Positions 2,807 to 11,728 are shown, counted from the first letter of the stretch. The stretch is 11,728 bases of DNA from a virus (IMGVR_UViG_2565956624_000004:1-11728); one strand, 5' to 3'. The notes: a model not told the origin generated them from the sequence alone. A program made the numbers and translations.

Positions 2807-2883
2807 GTGATTGCGATCACATAAATATACATTTTGTGTTGTGATCGCGTATCCGTTTTGTAAACCGAAATCAAAAGGTTTAC
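2807..2883. promoter_or_regulatory. putative operator/promoter region: inverted 9-mers GCGATCACA (2813-2821) and TGTGATCGC (2840-2848) flanking an AT-rich spacer, plus hairpin GTAAACC-N10-GGTTTAC (2860-2883)
   Basis: Read directly from the 99-bp intergenic gap between the stop at 2802 and ATG 2902. Both 9-mers contain GATC. No convincing -35/-10 pair could be fixed by eye. Confidence 0.25.
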
Positions 2884-4091: not shown

Positions 4092-4631
4092 ATGAAAAGT
4101 GATTACGGCGGCAGCCATACGCCGAAAGAAATAAAAGACTTATGGCAAACGCCAAAACCCGTTTTTAGAGGAATGGATCGCGAGTTCGAATTTGTCGCAG
4201 ATGTGGCGGCAAACAGGGAAAACGCGCTCGTTCCTCGGTATATAACTGAAGAAATGGACGCGCTTACTTATCCGTGGGGAGCGGTGGCAATGCCTGGCGA
4301 ATATGTATGGATGAATCCACCATATTCAAACCCAGGTCCATTCGTTGATAAAGCAGCGCTCGAACATCAACGAAATCACATCGGTTGCGTAATGTTATTG
4401 CCCGCTGACGTTTCTGTTAGCTGGTTTATGAACGGCGTTGAGACGGCAAATGAGTGCCGATTAATCACGCGCGGGCGGCTGGCGTTTATCAATGCTGCGA
4501 CTGGTAAGCCAGTAAGCGGAAACAATAAAGGGAGCTTGTTTTTGATCTGGCATCCACGGTGCAGACATGAATGTATTTTCACGCAGATAACACGTAAAGA
4601 GCTATATGCAAGAGGTGCAGATAATGACTAA
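4092..4631 (+). CDS. phage-type DNA N6-adenine methyltransferase (Dam-like, NPPY motif)
   Basis: Translation has N-terminal WQTPKPVF and the catalytic motif IV NPPY (WMNPPYSN). This pattern and the ~180 aa size match the small phage Dam family (T1 Dam-like) as I recall it. Confidence 0.75.
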   Translation: MKSDYGGSHTPKEIKDLWQTPKPVFRGMDREFEFVADVAANRENALVPRYITEEMDALTYPWGAVAMPGEYVWMNPPYSNPGPFVDKAALEHQRNHIGCVMLLPADVSVSWFMNGVETANECRLITRGRLAFINAATGKPVSGNNKGSLFLIWHPRCRHECIFTQITRKELYARGADND

Positions 4632-5109: not shown

Positions 5110-5593
5110 CAGGTTACTGGCCTGCGTTTATGTCGCCGTTTTCGTGATCATCAACCTTATTGTTAACCATTGCGGCCCGTGGGTAATTCCGATCACCACG
5201 GTAGCCGCAGTGTGTGTCAATATGATGATCCGCGACTTTCTGTTATATGACGGCGGCCTGAAATGGTCGGCTACAACGTGCGCAGCCGCTGGCGCAATCA
5301 CGGTGCTGATAAACTACGATGCCGGAATGGTGGCGGTCGCGTCATTCGTTGCGGTTGTTTCCGGTGCGCTTATATCTGGCGGCGTTTACCGGGTTTTACC
5401 TGGTGATTTCGATTCCAAACGCTGGCCTGCAAATATAGCTTCAGCCATTGGAGATGCGTTAATTTTTCCCACGCTATCGTTTATGGCATTTATGCCGGAA
5501 ATATCAGCTATGCAATTCATCTCAAAAATGGCAGCGGTAACGGTGATCACTATCATCATGCGCCGCTATTTTACGTTTGAGGGCAGAAAATGA
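5090..5593 (+). CDS. integral membrane protein, possibly VUT/YhhQ-family (queuosine-precursor-transporter-like)
   Basis: ATG 5090 (track ORF starts at TTG 5060). Several hydrophobic helices. The segment IASAIGDALIFPTLSFMAF resembles the conserved C-terminal segment of YhhQ/DUF165 proteins (TASTLFGNVSDTLAFFFIAF) as I recall it. The family assignment is tentative. Confidence 0.45.
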   Translation: MKKVTIDRLLACVYVAVFVIINLIVNHCGPWVIPITTVAAVCVNMMIRDFLLYDGGLKWSATTCAAAGAITVLINYDAGMVAVASFVAVVSGALISGGVYRVLPGDFDSKRWPANIASAIGDALIFPTLSFMAFMPEISAMQFISKMAAVTVITIIMRRYFTFEGRK

Positions 5594-6354
5594 GTGGGCT
5601 TAAAAATTGGGTGGTGTGGTCGCTGTACGACGGCAGCGGGTACGCCGTTAAAGATTGGGCTGACGCTGGCTATAAGTGTTATTGCTTCAACTATGACGGC
5701 GCTAACCACGGCGACTATGAAGGCGTAAAAATCATTCATCCGAATATTGAATACGTTAACGTATGGATTGACAGCCATTTCCTGGTGATGTTCTCCCCTG
5801 ATTTGTCTGTTTATCCAGATCCTGACATTATTCTGGCCTTCCCGCCATGCGACCATCTAGCCGTGTCCGGCGCTCGTTGGTTTGCCAGCAAGCGTGAAAA
5901 AGATCCTGACTTCCAGGTGAAGGCGGCATATAACGCAAAACTGGTAGAAACGCTGGCTGACATGTATCACGTCCCGTGGATGGTGGAAAATCCGGTTGGC
6001 GCACTGTCAACGTTATGGCGTAAGCCGGATTTTATCTTCAACCCGTGCGCTTACGGTGGCTACCTGCCTGAAGATGACAAACATCCTGCCTTCCCGGAAT
6101 ACATCGCCGACCGCGACGCATACACGAAGAAAACTTGTATCTGGTGCGGGAATGGATTTAATCAGCCGCTATTCCTGCCTGTGCCAATGCCTGATGAATG
6201 GGAAGACAGTAAGCAGCACGCTAAGTTAGGAGGAAAGTCGAAACGCACTAAGATGATCCGCTCACTAACGCCGCGTGGCTTTGCCCGTGCTGTATTCCTG
6301 GCTAACGACCGGGCCATCAATCGTACTACGCTCAACCGCGTTTTACCGGACTGA
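5590..6354 (+). CDS. compact DNA (cytosine-5)-methyltransferase-like protein
   Basis: Motifs in canonical C5-MTase order: motif I-like SLYDGSGYA, motif IV FPPCDHLAVSGA (Pro-Cys dipeptide, but PCD instead of PCQ), motif VI MVENPVGAL (ENV-like), motif IX-like RSLTPRGFARAVFL (RxLTPRExARLQGF pattern). At 254 aa it is short for the family. Confidence 0.6.
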   Translation: MSGLKNWVVWSLYDGSGYAVKDWADAGYKCYCFNYDGANHGDYEGVKIIHPNIEYVNVWIDSHFLVMFSPDLSVYPDPDIILAFPPCDHLAVSGARWFASKREKDPDFQVKAAYNAKLVETLADMYHVPWMVENPVGALSTLWRKPDFIFNPCAYGGYLPEDDKHPAFPEYIADRDAYTKKTCIWCGNGFNQPLFLPVPMPDEWEDSKQHAKLGGKSKRTKMIRSLTPRGFARAVFLANDRAINRTTLNRVLPD

Positions 6355-6376
6355 AGTTTACAAAATGGCGTCATTG

Positions 6377-6437
6377 TGTGATACAGGTCACATAATGGCG
6401 CTTTTCGTCTTGTTTACGTGTATCCATTTTGTATACT
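6377..6437 (+). promoter_or_regulatory. putative sigma70-type promoter (-35 TTGTTT 6410-6415, 16-bp spacer, -10 TATACT 6432-6437) with an upstream CRP-like palindrome TGTGA-N6-TCACA (6377-6392)
   Basis: Hexamers and palindrome read directly from the 160-bp gap between the stop at 6354 and ATG 6514. The palindrome matches both half-sites of the CRP consensus and is centred about 60 bp upstream of the predicted start site. Confidence 0.35.
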
Positions 6438-6513
6438 TCAAGCAAACGAAATGCTCTTTAAAAATCCGGCAGCGCTGAAATGCGTAGAAATCACCTTAAA
6501 GGGAGGGAGCATT

Positions 6514-6690
6514 ATGTCTTTTGATAATTACCAATGGCATGACGACTATGAACGAGAAAGCGTCATGCGTGCAATGTGCAATGTATGCAGCACAAAGAAA
6601 GGAGGCTGTAACGAGTGCAACGAATGCTTAGATCATTGGCTAAGGGCCGGACACACCGAAAGGCTGAACGAAACAGAGAATCAAAAATAA
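6514..6690 (+). CDS. small Cys-rich (zinc-ribbon-like) protein, NinF-like
   Basis: ATG 6514 with strong SD GGGAGGGAG upstream (the track's longer 6418 start lacks this). CxxC...CxxCxxC pattern (MCNVCSTKKGGCNECNEC). Sits immediately upstream of ninG as NinF does in lambda; the NinF resemblance is from memory. Confidence 0.45.
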   Translation: MSFDNYQWHDDYERESVMRAMCNVCSTKKGGCNECNECLDHWLRAGHTERLNETENQK

Positions 6691-6704: not shown

Positions 6705-7310
6705 ATGCAGAACCCTAAAAAACCAATAAGACGCCGTTGCAAGTGCTGCGGCGTTTTTTTTGAGCCTAAATATCACAATCAAACGTGGTGCAGTGATGAG
6801 TGTCTGGAAGAGCTGAAGTTTGATCAGCTATGCCGCGACCGTGAGAAGGCTATGAAGGCTATGGAACGGAAGAAACGCCGTGATAGCCAGCGGGAAGAAC
6901 GCAACCGGAAGCGGAAGCAGTTAAATCCGCGTAGTTATTGGTTGAAGCAGGCACAAGCGGTATTTAATGCCTATATCCGCGAACGTGACGCGGGTCAGCC
7001 GTGCATATCATGCGGGACTTACTATTACGAACAATGCGGAGCAGATGCCGGACACTATAGAACGGTTGCCGCCGCCGGGCACCTTCGTTTTAACGAGGAT
7101 AATTGCCACAAACAATGCAGGCACTGCAACCAGACATTAGATGGCAACATAGAAGCATATCGCCCAGCGCTGATTAGGAAAATTGGCCTTGCCAGGGTGG
7201 AAGCGCTGGAGAACAACAACGAAACTCATAAATGGGCGATCGAAGAATGCAAGGAGATCATAAAAGTCTATCAGGCTAAATTGGACGCCTTAAGGAGAAA
7301 GGCAGCATGA
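6705..7310 (+). CDS. ninG: NinG/Rap-family recombination protein (structure-specific endonuclease)
   Basis: In-frame ATG 6705 with SD GGGGTGG. Translation carries NinG hallmarks: N-terminal RRRCKCCGVFF, PRSYWLKQAQ, PCISCG, DAGHYR, LRFNEDNCHKQCRHCN, and C-terminal IEECKEI. Confidence 0.85.
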   Translation: MQNPKKPIRRRCKCCGVFFEPKYHNQTWCSDECLEELKFDQLCRDREKAMKAMERKKRRDSQREERNRKRKQLNPRSYWLKQAQAVFNAYIRERDAGQPCISCGTYYYEQCGADAGHYRTVAAAGHLRFNEDNCHKQCRHCNQTLDGNIEAYRPALIRKIGLARVEALENNNETHKWAIEECKEIIKVYQAKLDALRRKAA

Positions 7311-7708
7311 ATGAATATACTTTTAGCCTGCCTTACCCGCCATCGAACAATAAATATTACCGGCATTCGCGCGGTTTCCACTATATAAGCAAGGAAGGTA
7401 AGGAATACAGGGAGCAGGTAAAAGACATTATAAAACTGCTTAATCTGAAAATTAATCTTAAGTGTAGGCTATCAATAACGGTGTATATTGCACCGCCAGA
7501 TAACAGACGCCGCGATATTGACAATGTAGGGAAGGCATTATTTGACGCTATAACTTATTCCGGTTTTTGGGCTGATGATAGCCAGGTTGACGCAATGAAA
7601 TTTGTCCGCTGCCGGAAGGTAAAAAGAGGGCGATTGTTTATCAAGGTACGCGAACGCGGCGACCTGTTACCGGATATTAACGAATACTTGACTAATATGT
7701 GGTGGTAA
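7307..7708 (+). CDS. rusA: RusA-family Holliday junction resolvase
   Basis: Translation matches RusA along its length: YTFSLPYPPSNNKYYRH, PPDNRRRDIDNVGKALFDAITYSGFWADDSQV, RGRLFIKV. ATGA overlap with ninG. Confidence 0.85.
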   Translation: MNEYTFSLPYPPSNNKYYRHSRGFHYISKEGKEYREQVKDIIKLLNLKINLKCRLSITVYIAPPDNRRRDIDNVGKALFDAITYSGFWADDSQVDAMKFVRCRKVKRGRLFIKVRERGDLLPDINEYLTNMWW

Positions 7709-7710
7709 CA

Positions 7711-7893
7711 ATGAAAAACGAAATTAAAGATCTGCAAATAGATATTCAGCGCGACGAGCGTGATTTAGCCACAGTCCGACAAATTCAGGCTTTTCACATG
7801 CGAGAATTACTTGCACTGAAAGAGTTTGAAAGAAAGCTAGTGCAATCAATATCTGATCGCAAAAGACTGGTTGCACGTTACGGGGGTAAATAA
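7711..7893 (+). CDS. hypothetical coiled-coil protein (60 aa)
   Basis: ATG 7711 three nt after the rusA stop; charged, helical-looking sequence. Occupies the small-ORF slot often found between rusA and Q in lambdoid prophages. Confidence 0.45.
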   Translation: MKNEIKDLQIDIQRDERDLATVRQIQAFHMRELLALKEFERKLVQSISDRKRLVARYGGK

Positions 7894-8615
7894 TGAATTT
7901 GGAATCTATTCTTAAATTCCACTTCCCAAAATCACCGCGTTTGTCAGATGAAAGCCGGGGCACGTCCCCGGATGCGCTTAATACTACGGATGCGCTAACT
8001 GCCGCTGGTATGGCGCAATCGCGCGTAGAGCTTGGTTATAGCGCTTTTCTGGGAAAGATGGAACTATCACAAGCCGAAAAACATAAGGCCGTAGTTTTGC
8101 TTATAGAGCGTTTAAAGGCTATGGCAAAAGATTATGAATACGTTATGGAACTGGACGAGGCTAAACGCAATGATCTCATTATTCTTGTTGCCGTTTTCGC
8201 GTTTCGGGATTATTGCCAGAGTGCCGCGACGGAAAAAACTTGTATGGAGTGCGGCGGATATAAATTTACGTTTGACGAATACGGAGAAAAACACCTTTGC
8301 AAAAAATGCAAGGGGCATGGGAAGGTTCTCAATCATTGTAAACAATGCAAGGGCCGTGGCGAAGTACCGGATAAAGCAGCCAGCGAAGCGGCGGAAATGC
8401 CAGTGTTCAAAACGTGCCAGCATTGCGGCGGGCGCGGGTACTCGCGTTTCCCCGTAGATCTTGTGCGTCAGGCCGTTAATCAGCTTGTTTTTCCGGTAAG
8501 CCGATCAACCTGGTGGAAAAAATACCGGGTTTTCTATGAAGACGCCATAGCGGAGCTATTCAAAGAAGAGGGCCGCGCGGAAAGTGAAATCAAACGAGTG
8601 ACACGGGGTGAATAA
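7893..8615 (+). CDS. putative Q-like antitermination protein with DnaJ-type zinc finger
   Basis: Four CxxCxGxG repeats (CMECGGYK, CKKCKGHG, CKQCKGRG, CQHCGGRG), i.e. a DnaJ CR-type zinc finger. Position directly downstream of ninG-rusA is where Q sits in lambdoid phages. The Q assignment is inference from position plus zinc-binding architecture. Confidence 0.45.
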   Translation: MNLESILKFHFPKSPRLSDESRGTSPDALNTTDALTAAGMAQSRVELGYSAFLGKMELSQAEKHKAVVLLIERLKAMAKDYEYVMELDEAKRNDLIILVAVFAFRDYCQSAATEKTCMECGGYKFTFDEYGEKHLCKKCKGHGKVLNHCKQCKGRGEVPDKAASEAAEMPVFKTCQHCGGRGYSRFPVDLVRQAVNQLVFPVSRSTWWKKYRVFYEDAIAELFKEEGRAESEIKRVTRGE

Positions 8616-9074: not shown

Positions 9075-9375
9075 AGACCTGCATTTGAATCTGAAAGGGG
9101 AATATTTCCACGCCATATGGACTGGAAAGAAGGTGGAGGAATACCGGCTTTATAATGACTATTGGCGTAAACGTCTGGAAGGGCGGGAATATGAACGCCT
9201 GATTATTAAATGGGGATACCCTGCCAACCACGAAAAACACAGGATTATTAACCTTCCTTATTTTGGGTACGAAGTAAAAACTATCACTCATCCATTATTC
9301 GGCCCTGATCCTGTTAAGGTATTCGCAATTAAATGTGACAGAAATTGGATGTTGAGAGGTGAAAATGAAAAGTAA
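9064..9375 (+). CDS. putative ASCH/PUA-like domain protein
   Basis: In-frame ATG 9064 with AGGA 8 nt upstream. N-terminal pattern LNLKGEYFHAIWTGKKVEEYR resembles the ASCH signature (hydrophobic strand, then G-K-K-x-x-E-x-R). Tentative. Confidence 0.4.
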   Translation: MASKDLHLNLKGEYFHAIWTGKKVEEYRLYNDYWRKRLEGREYERLIIKWGYPANHEKHRIINLPYFGYEVKTITHPLFGPDPVKVFAIKCDRNWMLRGENEK

Positions 9376-9580
9376 CCGCAAGCGCCTTGTAAGGGCGTAC
9401 GACAAAGCATTAAAGGCTTTTGATGATCTGCGACACAATAAACGCCAGCGCCGCAAATGGGCGCGTATGCTTGTTTATGAGTGGCATTATTCTGATGCTT
9501 TTATGGAAAGCGCACCGCTATTAACACAAGAACAAGCCGACGAAGTGGCTAACGATAACGTTTATTATATGATGTGGTGA
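9365..9580 (+). CDS. hypothetical protein, paralog A of a tandem pair
   Basis: ATG 9365 (track ORF starts at GTG 9359). MKSNRKRLVRAYDKALKAFDDL... ends ...DNVYYMMW. Clearly homologous to the next gene. Confidence 0.5.
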   Translation: MKSNRKRLVRAYDKALKAFDDLRHNKRQRRKWARMLVYEWHYSDAFMESAPLLTQEQADEVANDNVYYMMW

Positions 9581-9584
9581 CAAT

Positions 9585-9806
9585 ATGAAAAGTAACCGTA
9601 AGCGCATGATAAGAGCATATGATAAAGCGTTAATGGAATTTGACATACTACCACGCAGCAAGCGCCACCGCCGCCAATTTGCGAGATATATTTTTCATAT
9701 ATGGCACGATGCTGATTTCTTTTTTGATGCCAGATATATAACACAGGAAGATGCTGATAATATAGCTTACGATAACGTTTACTACATAATGAGTGAGTGT
9801 AATTAA
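9585..9806 (+). CDS. hypothetical protein, paralog B of a tandem pair
   Basis: MKSNRKRMIRAYDKALMEFDIL...DNVYYIMSECN; N- and C-termini conserved with paralog A, central region diverged. Confidence 0.5.
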   Translation: MKSNRKRMIRAYDKALMEFDILPRSKRHRRQFARYIFHIWHDADFFFDARYITQEDADNIAYDNVYYIMSECN

Positions 9807-9807
9807 T

Positions 9808-10173
9808 ATGCAAATAATCATTGATTACCTTTGCCACGCTGTAAATACTCTTTTTGGTTTTTATCAACAACCATTCCTCAAAGAATGGGACGAAATGCTT
9901 AATGACATCATTGATAAAGGGTTAATAGTTGAGGTTGGCAAGCTAACGATAAAATTTAATTACGAAGGCAAAGAATATGAAATATGGGTAGGTAATAGAT
10001 GGTACTCATACGGGCATATTTATTCAATTGGCGGCAAATACATTAAACGTAGCCAGGAGTTCAGGCCGCGATTCCGCACAATGCGCCGCCTGCGTGACCT
10101 GCATATGAATATATTTGAAAATCAGGAAGCGTGTGAACTATTCAAGATCTACGGGGATAAATCATGGAGCTAA
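9808..10173 (+). CDS. hypothetical protein (121 aa)
   Basis: ATG 9808 two nt after the upstream stop (track ORF starts at GTG 9793); no domain recognised. Confidence 0.5.
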   Translation: MQIIIDYLCHAVNTLFGFYQQPFLKEWDEMLNDIIDKGLIVEVGKLTIKFNYEGKEYEIWVGNRWYSYGHIYSIGGKYIKRSQEFRPRFRTMRRLRDLHMNIFENQEACELFKIYGDKSWS

Positions 10174-11586: not shown

Positions 11587-11612
11587 ATGTGATCTACCAC
11601 ACAAAGTTTACG

Positions 11613-11640
11613 AAATGGCATTGTTTAGGCAGTGCCATTT
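11613..11640. promoter_or_regulatory. inverted repeat AAATGGCA-N12-TGCCATTT in a 96-bp intergenic gap (operator, weak terminator or RNA hairpin)
   Basis: Read directly; 8-bp perfect arms with a 12-nt loop, followed by TTGTTACATATAAG, which contains -10-like hexamers. Only a short T run follows the stem, so a strong intrinsic terminator is not supported. Confidence 0.2.
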
Positions 11641-11682
11641 TGTTACATATAAGCCACGGAAAGACGAATGGGAGGTAAGAAG

Positions 11683-11728
11683 ATGAACGCTAACGCTAAG
11701 GAAGGTGCGAATAAGCGGGGAAATTCTT
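11683..11728 (+). CDS. hypothetical protein, 5' fragment (continues beyond window)
   Basis: ATG 11683 with strong SD GGGAGGT 6 nt upstream; MNANAKEGANKRGNS... open to the window end. Confidence 0.35.
   Translation, partial: MNANAKEGANKRGNS

Follow-up and report, generated by a model that had tools for sequence, protein, structure and literature searches.

A CRP-type palindrome, a putative promoter and the nutR2 site form a candidate composite cassette in mEp021-type coliphages

We examined an 11,728-nt viral sequence (IMGVR_UViG_2565956624_000004; hereafter the window, to whose full length all coordinates refer unless another locus is named), and in particular its interval 6355–6513, where an initial annotation had placed a promoter with a CRP-type palindrome upstream of a ninF-like/ninG/rusA/Q-like operon. 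Judged from its sequence, the window is a prophage of the mEp021 type (mEpimmI), a group of temperate coliphages, in Escherichia coli. Seven phage records matched the region at 85–94% identity, and all belonged to the mEp021 group (mEp010, mEp013, mEp021, mEp044, mEp515, mEp554, and MagusPhagus); matching prophages were found in 35 of 5,426 complete E. coli genomes. The prophage adjoining ogt in E. coli GN04592 was 97.5% identical to the window, and positions in its fetched 40-kb locus are given below as L016 coordinates. The mEpimmI phages were defined recently and are prevalent in the human gut according to their describers (PMC11893012).

The interval proved to be the precise gap between a 254-amino-acid open reading frame (ORF) and a 58-amino-acid ORF, the latter beginning at 6514 and not at 6515. 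The proposed operon was recovered in part: NinG, RusA, and the Q-type antiterminator were identified by Pfam, but the ninF-like ORF had no Pfam match, and the name NinF stems from the mEp021 record alone. The genes surrounding the interval are as follows.

5590–6354, + strand: upstream gene, with its stop codon at 6352–6354; DNA cytosine methyltransferase by the RefSeq/GenBank annotation of relatives, including mEp021 (the window copy had no Pfam match at E ≤ 0.01)
6514–6690, + strand: ninF-like ORF, 58 amino acids; its ribosome-binding site AGGGAGGGAG and start codon (6514–6516) span 6500–6516
6705–7310, + strand: NinG
6735–6761, + strand: intrinsic-terminator-like hairpin followed by T8, inside the 5′ end of ninG (8 pairs, −15.3 kcal/mol)
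7307–7708, + strand: RusA
7893–8615, + strand: Q-type antiterminator

The gap itself holds the following elements, in which pL denotes the probable early leftward promoter described below. The 42 relatives with which they were compared are distinct versions drawn from phages in GenBank, prophages of E. coli, and contigs of IMG/VR.

6367–6402, + strand: stem-loop of 16 bp with a 4-nt loop, found in a scan for terminator-like structures; it corresponds to the predicted intrinsic terminator TERM_4/t4 of mEp021
6377–6392, no strand assigned: CRP-type palindrome TGTGA-TACAGG-TCACA, centred at 6384.5 within a 22-bp site (6374–6395)
6403–6411, + strand: T-rich tract TTTCGTCTT, variable across relatives
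6410–6415, + strand: putative −35 element TTGTTT; in 42 relatives the conserved TTGT(T/C) is flanked on both sides by hypervariable sequence, and it occupies the position of TTGATC/TTGACC at pL
6424–6437, + strand: the sequence CCATTTTG, part of an element called motif X below, and the putative −10 element TATACT (6432–6437), invariant in 42 relatives
6444–6445, + strand: predicted transcription start, placed 7–8 nt past the −10 element
6452–6464, + strand: boxA of nutR2, TGCTCTTTAAAAA, an exact match that is unique in the window and invariant in relatives
6470–6487, + strand: boxB hairpin of nutR2, CAG-CGC-UGAAAU-GCG-UAG, predicted in the fold

The stem-loop with its T-rich run, the nut site formed by boxA and boxB (6452–6487), and the recurrence of the palindrome-containing module at 2806 and 11588 had all been overlooked in the initial annotation. 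A 37-amino-acid "hypothetical protein" called by phanotate in mEp010 and MagusPhagus (window 6365–6478, + strand), which runs across the hairpin, the promoter, and boxA, was rejected as coding; because 1-base deletions in two relatives (L011 and L027) fall within it, this ORF is very likely a gene-caller artefact.

The sole published function of the interval is that of nutR2. In mEp021-type phages, the N-like protein Gp17 acts at three nut sites, of which nutR2 sits downstream of the methyltransferase gene (PMC11893012), and Gp17- and Nus-dependent read-through at mEp021 nutR2 was reported by Valencia-Toxqui et al. (2023), as summarised in PMC11893012. As far as that summary describes it, the mEp021 site agrees with the one studied here in its position between the cytosine methyltransferase gene and ninF, its near-identical sequence, its boxA TGCTCTTTAAAAA, and the predicted t4 just upstream, and also in having a boxB with an A-rich loop and a boxA identical to that of nutL. 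In the window, the features of an N-type nut site are a boxA match and, a few nucleotides after it, a boxB hairpin with a purine-rich loop. Two stem pairs of boxB change on both sides among the 42 relatives (G-U to C-G or A-U, and C-G to U-A), and the 17-mer GCTCTTTAAAAATCCGG at the nutR2 boxA is identical in the nutL boxA, which lies in the immunity region on the opposite strand. The boxA consensus is of the CGCTCTTTA/TGCTCTTTAACA type, which the nutR2 boxA matches. Pairing between boxA and the ninF ribosome-binding site was no better than in shuffled sequences (z = −1.3).

The palindrome reported in the initial annotation, TGTGA-N6-TCACA at 6377–6392, is present; it reads TGTGATACAGGTCACA and is the sole exact match in the 11.7-kb window, and the exact core did not occur once in 200 dinucleotide-preserving shuffles of the window. 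Its CRP likeness was upheld by scoring with a symmetrised, approximate matrix derived from 16 classical CRP sites: the site scored 19.3 bits, compared with 18.1 for the best training site and 17.4 for the best of 200 shuffles. Four further copies of the palindrome, introduced below as pL, M3w, M3, and M2, scored 17.3, 16.8, 15.8, and 13.7 bits, respectively, and when the window and the 40-kb prophage locus were scored together, these were the five best matches to the matrix, all of them intergenic. Across the relatives, GTGAT and TCACA of the site under study were near-invariant, and the central 4 nt were hypervariable, with 13 different tetranucleotides among the 42. Over the modules generally, relatives retained the GTGA/TCAC cores, and changes were concentrated at the first T of TGTGA and at the central 4 nt. 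These are the low-information positions of CRP sites. The palindrome is thus plausibly a credible CRP site, as predicted from its sequence.

The putative promoter was more ambiguous. The hexamers of the initial annotation, TTGTTT and TATACT, are present with a 16-nt spacer, but they match only 8 of the 12 consensus positions and fall below the threshold of the consensus scanner, which made no call. A column entropy profile computed from 41–42 distinct relatives nevertheless argued for a promoter. The most variable columns were the 4-nt loop of the hairpin, positions 6404–6408 (past the T-tract), and positions 6415–6419 (the first five spacer nucleotides), and amid these variable flanks TTGT(T/C) and GTATCCATTTTGTATACTTCAA stood out as conserved islands. 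The main argument for a promoter at 6410–6437 is that the hexamers have been conserved while the spacer and flanks have drifted. We therefore lean, by a modest degree, towards the view that the sequence specifies an active promoter, and nutR2 probably has a pL-like promoter of its own.

This view gains weight from the repetition of the whole arrangement elsewhere in these genomes. The copies are designated M1 (palindrome at 6377, the one under study), M2 (2806), M3w (11588), and M3 (L016 25974), in addition to the pL copy. The elements of three of them are as follows.

2806–2866, + strand: M2, with palindrome CGTGATTGCGATCACA (2806–2821), TTGTGA (2839–2844), and CCGTTTTG-TAAACC (2853–2866)
11588–11649, + strand: M3w, with palindrome TGTGATCTACCACACA (11588–11603), TTGTTT (11621–11626), CCATTTTG (11635–11642), and TTACAT/TACATA
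L016, between the repressor gene and nutL, − strand: pL copy, with palindrome TTTGATGCAAGTCACA, 18 nt, TTGATC, 16 nt ending in CCATTTTG, and TAAACT

The shared plan is a palindrome, 17–18 nt, TTGNNN, 16 nt ending in CC(A/G)TTTTG, and TAWACT. The distance from the start of the CC to the palindrome centre is 39.5 bp in M1, M2, M3, and M3w and 40.5 bp in the pL copy, and of the five palindromes in the L016 locus that have no more than one mismatch, four are followed by CC(A/G)TTTTG beginning 47 or 48 nt past the palindrome start. The series pL, M2, M1, M3 recurs at conserved map positions in every long relative, making four copies per genome; M2 is conserved in 23 distinct relatives, and M3-type copies also occur in relatives. 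A blastn search of phages with "distant" settings for further copies yielded nothing beyond the seven mEp-group records, and a scan of genome contigs with the 14-mer TCCATTTTGTATAC yielded only chance matches in unrelated taxa.

The minus-strand copy that precedes nutL is the probable early leftward promoter pL, to judge from its sequence and setting: the nutL boxA follows about 65 nt downstream. In the relatives, this copy has a −35 element of TTGATC or TTGACC and a −10 element of TAAACT with a freely varying spacer, and the scanner called TTGACC-16-TAAACT in one of them (L018). M1–nutR2 and pL–nutL share the palindrome, the position of the −35 element, 16 of 19 bases around the −10 element, and an identical boxA, and have diverged in the remainder. 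Such a pattern suggests that a promoter-plus-nut unit was duplicated long ago and kept its functional parts.

The spacing between palindrome and promoter also bears on the mode of action. The initial annotation had put the palindrome about 60 bp upstream of the start, at the classic class I position. The distance to the predicted start was borne out (−59.5 to −60.5); it is 1–2 bp closer than the classic class I value of −61.5. The predicted centre is at −60.5/−61.5 for pL and at −59.5/−60.5 for M2 and M3, the same as for M1. Class I CRP sites are centred at −61.5, −71.5, −82.5, or −92.5 from the start, and at lac the CRP centre is at −61.5, with 54.5 bp separating it from the final base of the −10 element.

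Several observations weigh against reading M1 as a promoter activated by CRP. Apart from the poor consensus match noted above, the M1 palindrome centre lies 52.5 bp from the last −10 base, which yields the prediction of −59.5/−60.5. The half-site TGTGA is exact in only 15 of the 42 relatives and is replaced by CGTGA in the other 27, and the conserved block in M1 spans about 40 bp (6363–6402), more than the 22 bp of a CRP site. Several variants of M2 and M3 retain G-U-compatible pairing while their CRP match is weakened, and the −10 element of M2 is poorly conserved (TAAACC, TAAGCC, TGAACT). The CRP matrix itself is approximate. Two further points on the same side, concerning the hairpin and motif X, are given with those elements below. 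Taken together, the CRP-promoter reading of the initial annotation has on its side the top-scoring site, the conserved hexamers, and the paralogy to the probable pL; against it stand the terminator-like hairpin, the CGTGA variant in 27 of 42 relatives, the geometry that is off by 1–2 bp, and the neglect of nutR2.

The first of these is the hairpin. The CRP-type palindrome forms the apex of this hairpin, comprising the upper six pairs and the loop of the stem-loop at 6367–6402, which starts 13 nt past the stop codon of the methyltransferase gene and whose RNA folds at about −24 kcal/mol (z = −5.1). In the mEp021 record (GenBank MH706966), the homologue of 6367–6400 is annotated as "terminator, TERM_4, score 79", in the style of TransTermHP, between the putative cytosine methyltransferase and NinF; the t3 and t4 terminators are predictions only (PMC11893012). 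The hairpin is stable in all 42 relatives (median, −19.7 kcal/mol). Its non-Watson-Crick positions are mostly G-U on the + strand, and the + strand RNA is more stable than the minus-strand RNA (−23.6 versus −14.6 kcal/mol); this bias and energy asymmetry point to a constraint at the RNA level in M1, which is the first of the two points counting against CRP activation. All of these properties, together with the T-rich run that follows the 16-bp stem, would be expected if the element were a terminator and nothing more. The palindrome would then be the top of t4 and its CRP likeness coincidental, there would be no internal promoter, and nutR2 would serve only to re-load Gp17 on polymerase arriving from pR, which is about 8 kb upstream. 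The weakness of the promoter hexamers fits this alternative, as does the published model, in which, as presented in PMC11893012, nutR2 is read by polymerase coming from upstream.

Other properties of the hairpin fit such an alternative poorly. Compensatory double changes were found in 0 of its 16 pairs among the 42 relatives, a comparison of low power at about 93% column identity, and the pair 6377–6392 in the centre of the stem is a C-A mismatch in 27 of the 42, because T6377 is C there. The T-tract is poor and variable: the scanner gave TTTCGTCTTG as the sequence after the 16-pair stem, and a U-tract test found TTTTCGTCTT in the window and 3–6 T in the first 8 nt in relatives, some of which have ATTCACC or CATTCACC instead. 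ARNold reported no terminator at the t4 position in four sister phages (mEp010, mEp013, mEp044, and mEp515), yet in the same four phages it annotates the ninG hairpin as a terminator. Moreover, termination explains neither the conservation of TTGT and TATACT as islands nor the occurrence of the palindrome at a fixed spacing, without a long stem or T-run, at pL, M2, and M3. The hairpins at those palindromes are weak (−2.4 to −8.9 kcal/mol, with M2 at −4.5 kcal/mol) and lack a T-run, and the trait shared by the copies is therefore not termination. On balance, a terminator alone seems rather unlikely to account for the interval. As one part of a composite element, in contrast, the t4 hairpin is plausible as a predicted intrinsic terminator of moderate strength.

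A better terminator-like hairpin lies downstream. It is a strong one, at 6735–6761, about 250 nt past nutR2 and inside the opening 20 codons of ninG, and it is much better formed than t4. It is likely to be the target of antitermination from nutR2, acting as a barrier before rusA and Q.

The stem could also serve the RNA in another way, as a processing or stability element of the pR transcript, possibly with an additional outer pairing between 6356–6368 and 6424–6436. RNase III cleavage or protection of a 3′ end at this point could divide the methyltransferase message from the nutR2–ninF–Q message. A 16-bp stem of mostly A-U and G-U pairs is long enough for RNase III, the strand asymmetry in folding energy and the flanking 13-nt inverted repeats count in its favour, and A-to-G variants in CC(A/G)TTTTG retain wobble pairing. 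On the other hand, neither the inner nor the outer stem shows compensatory changes, the other three modules have no comparable structures, and a scan of the whole window against Rfam returned no family at the gathering score. We regard this explanation as very improbable.

The second sequence shared by the modules is motif X, (T/G)CCATTTTGTA(A/T)AC(T), an asymmetric element of 13–15 nt that occurs in both orientations in regulatory regions, with four matches in the window compared with 0.4 expected. Its copies are as follows.

Window 6355–6368, − strand: inverted copy in M1, CCATTTTG-TAAACT, the same as the pL −10 region over 15 bases and conserved in relatives
Window 6424–6437, + strand: copy at the putative −10 element of M1
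Window 2853–2866, + strand: copy in M2
Window 11635–11642, + strand: copy in M3w
Window 11618, − strand: further copy
L016 11593, 12436, and 7619, all − strand: copies in the prophage locus

The spacing between motif X and the palindrome is identical in M1, M2, M3, and M3w. Its core CCATTTTGTAWAC is also found inverted inside M1 (6368 to 6355) and M3, and it overlaps the −10 element of pL. No obvious dyad symmetry was found in motif X, and a comparison by eye gave no convincing match to the consensus sequences of IHF, DnaA, Fis, or FNR. At the putative rightward promoter pR, which is strong (TTGACT-17-TATATT), motif X adjoins the −35 element in the opposite orientation and is conserved there. 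In that place it cannot be a −10 element, so motif X may be a protein-binding site that overlaps promoters; this is the second of the two points against the CRP-promoter reading.

In a further alternative, raised in outline by the initial annotation, a DNA-binding protein encoded by the phage would use the palindrome, perhaps with motif X (CCATTTTGTAWAC) included, as its operator and would co-regulate pL and the three internal promoters. Candidates for such a regulator are a MarR-like protein encoded by the first gene of the pL operon, an Lrp/AsnC-like protein, and a CI-like repressor. Each genome of this single-immunity group has four near-invariant copies of the site, one of them in the control region of pL and the repressor; the conservation of M1 exceeds a CRP footprint; the half-sites resemble motif X; and motif X abuts the −35 element of pR even in the most divergent relative. 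In the literature covered here, the operators of the group are undefined, and the supplement of PMC11893012 contains no data on promoters or operators. However, pR, which must be under the control of the immunity repressor, has no CRP-type palindrome in the immunity regions of mEp021 and L016, in which pL does have one, and for this reason the immunity repressor is an unlikely partner of the palindrome. A site about 60 bp upstream also leaves the core promoter unoccluded. In M3-type copies the right half of the palindrome can be degenerate (TCGCA, CCGCA, ACACA), and M2 copies differ at several positions; this suits a global regulator with degenerate sites better than a specific operator. The CRP consensus is also matched more closely than a chance resemblance would usually give. 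We consider a dedicated phage operator decidedly unlikely.

Other symmetrical sequences were observed in the immunity region. The pL copy of the palindrome (L016 11626–11641) lies 26 nt upstream of the repressor start codon and overlaps the region in which a candidate rightward promoter (TTAACA-17-TACATT, as read in relative L018) would be likely to start. A single bound protein could therefore have opposite effects on pL and on the repressor gene. In the pL leader (L016 11543–11580, both strands), the palindromes CTTGC-N6-GCAAG and ACCTTG-N4-CAAGTT lie just past the putative pL start; they are conserved, with centres that vary among relatives, and are candidate operators of a CI-like repressor. 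A perfect 8-bp inverted repeat, TTGACTCG ... CGAGTCAA, with its arms 20 nt apart (L016 12438–12475), brackets the putative pR, running from the −35 element to just beyond the −10 element, and is likewise an operator candidate.

Additional observations concern genes and repeats elsewhere in the window. A Dam-type adenine methyltransferase at 4092–4631 is a clear assignment. Residues 136–183 of the Q-type antiterminator (7893–8615) match the DnaJ CXXCXGXG zinc-finger domain below threshold, which is consistent with a zinc-binding Q. Among the small ORFs after Q (9359–10173), a 53-nt direct repeat with 75% identity (9522–9574 and 9739–9791, spacing 217 nt) suggests a tandem duplication of small genes. 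Near the ends of the window, a 21-nt inverted repeat with 95% complementarity, CTTGTTCGCACCTTCCTTAGC (15–35) and GCTAAGGAAGGTGCGAATAAG (11695–11715), has its arms 11.7 kb apart, both apparently within coding sequence.

Returning to the interval as a whole, the explanation that we tentatively put forward, and that we rate as possible though somewhat short of probable, is a composite terminator–promoter–nut cassette with a CRP-type activator site in mEpimmI phages. In this mechanism the sequence elements, their conservation, the repeated layout, and the covariation of boxB are observed and the function of nutR2 is taken from the mEp021 literature, while termination, promoter activity, and the binding and activating role of CRP are inferred. 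The long stem-loop past the methyltransferase gene (t4) would stop unmodified RNA polymerase as an intrinsic terminator of moderate strength, and polymerase from pR would pass it only if already modified by Gp17. A weak sigma-70 promoter paralogous to pL, TTGTTT-16-TATACT, would start additional transcripts, and nutR2 begins about 8 nt past the predicted start. These new transcripts would acquire Gp17 and Nus factors at nutR2, read through the ninG terminator, and continue into rusA and Q. A dimeric activator would bind the palindrome, about 60 bp upstream, and cAMP-CRP may act there in a class I-like manner, as it may at pL, M2, and M3. To judge from the sequence of the site, host cAMP-CRP is the best candidate for this dimeric activator. 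The more specific claim that it directly drives four paralogous early-type promoters, including pL and the internal one that feeds nutR2, appears unlikely to us.

The proposed cassette can be compared with known systems. It shares with lac P1-type class I promoters a consensus TGTGA-N6-TCACA about 60 bp upstream, a weak −35 element, and a fair −10 element, in this case at four promoters. It differs from lac P1 in the predicted centre (−59.5/−60.5, or −60.5/−61.5 at pL, versus −61.5) and in that the M1 site is inside a terminator-like hairpin. The PeSL cassettes of T4-like phages likewise combine a stem-loop with a promoter of early type and recur in intergenic positions (PMC2839356, PMC4122927), and in both cases the flanking genes differ among relatives. 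Here, M3-type copies have at least four upstream and three downstream contexts, and M1 has alternative neighbours upstream (L080, L010) and downstream (L009, L010, L024). Unlike the PeSL cassettes, the modules described here belong to a temperate siphovirus, have another sequence, and occur as four copies at conserved map positions, one of which has a nut site; furthermore, only M1 has a convincingly strong stem. In lambda, the terminators tR2–tR4 before ninG, rusA, and Q make Q depend on N-type antitermination, and t4 and the ninG hairpin with its T8 would have the same effect here. Lambda is not known to have a second nutR or a promoter at this position. For mEp021 nutR2, the mEp021-group literature covered here describes a nut site and a predicted terminator. 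It reports no pL-like promoter between t4 and nutR2, no CRP-type palindrome, and no four-fold module; the four-fold repetition of the module is new here. Direct action of host CRP on phage promoters has a precedent in phage T1, in which CRP acts at the pir, dam, and recE promoters of lysogeny genes and ties the phage decision to sugar uptake; in T1, however, CRP was found by experiment to repress (PMC6737242), whereas activation is here inferred from the position of the site.

If neither the promoter nor the CRP reading holds, the interval reduces to an ordinary terminator and the published nut site. Antitermination in mEpimmI phages works with three nut sites rather than two. A pL-like promoter belonging to nutR2 would account for this extra site, which would then load the antitermination factors onto a distinct transcription unit delivering Q. 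Should the four equally placed sites be genuine CRP targets, early transcription and the expression of Q would come under direct catabolite signalling. Control of the phage by carbon status through the palindrome is plausible from the sequence; if the CRP reading is true, carbon status would gate both the lysis–lysogeny switch and the entry into late-gene expression, providing a simple molecular link between carbon supply and the developmental decision in phages reported to be prevalent in the human gut.

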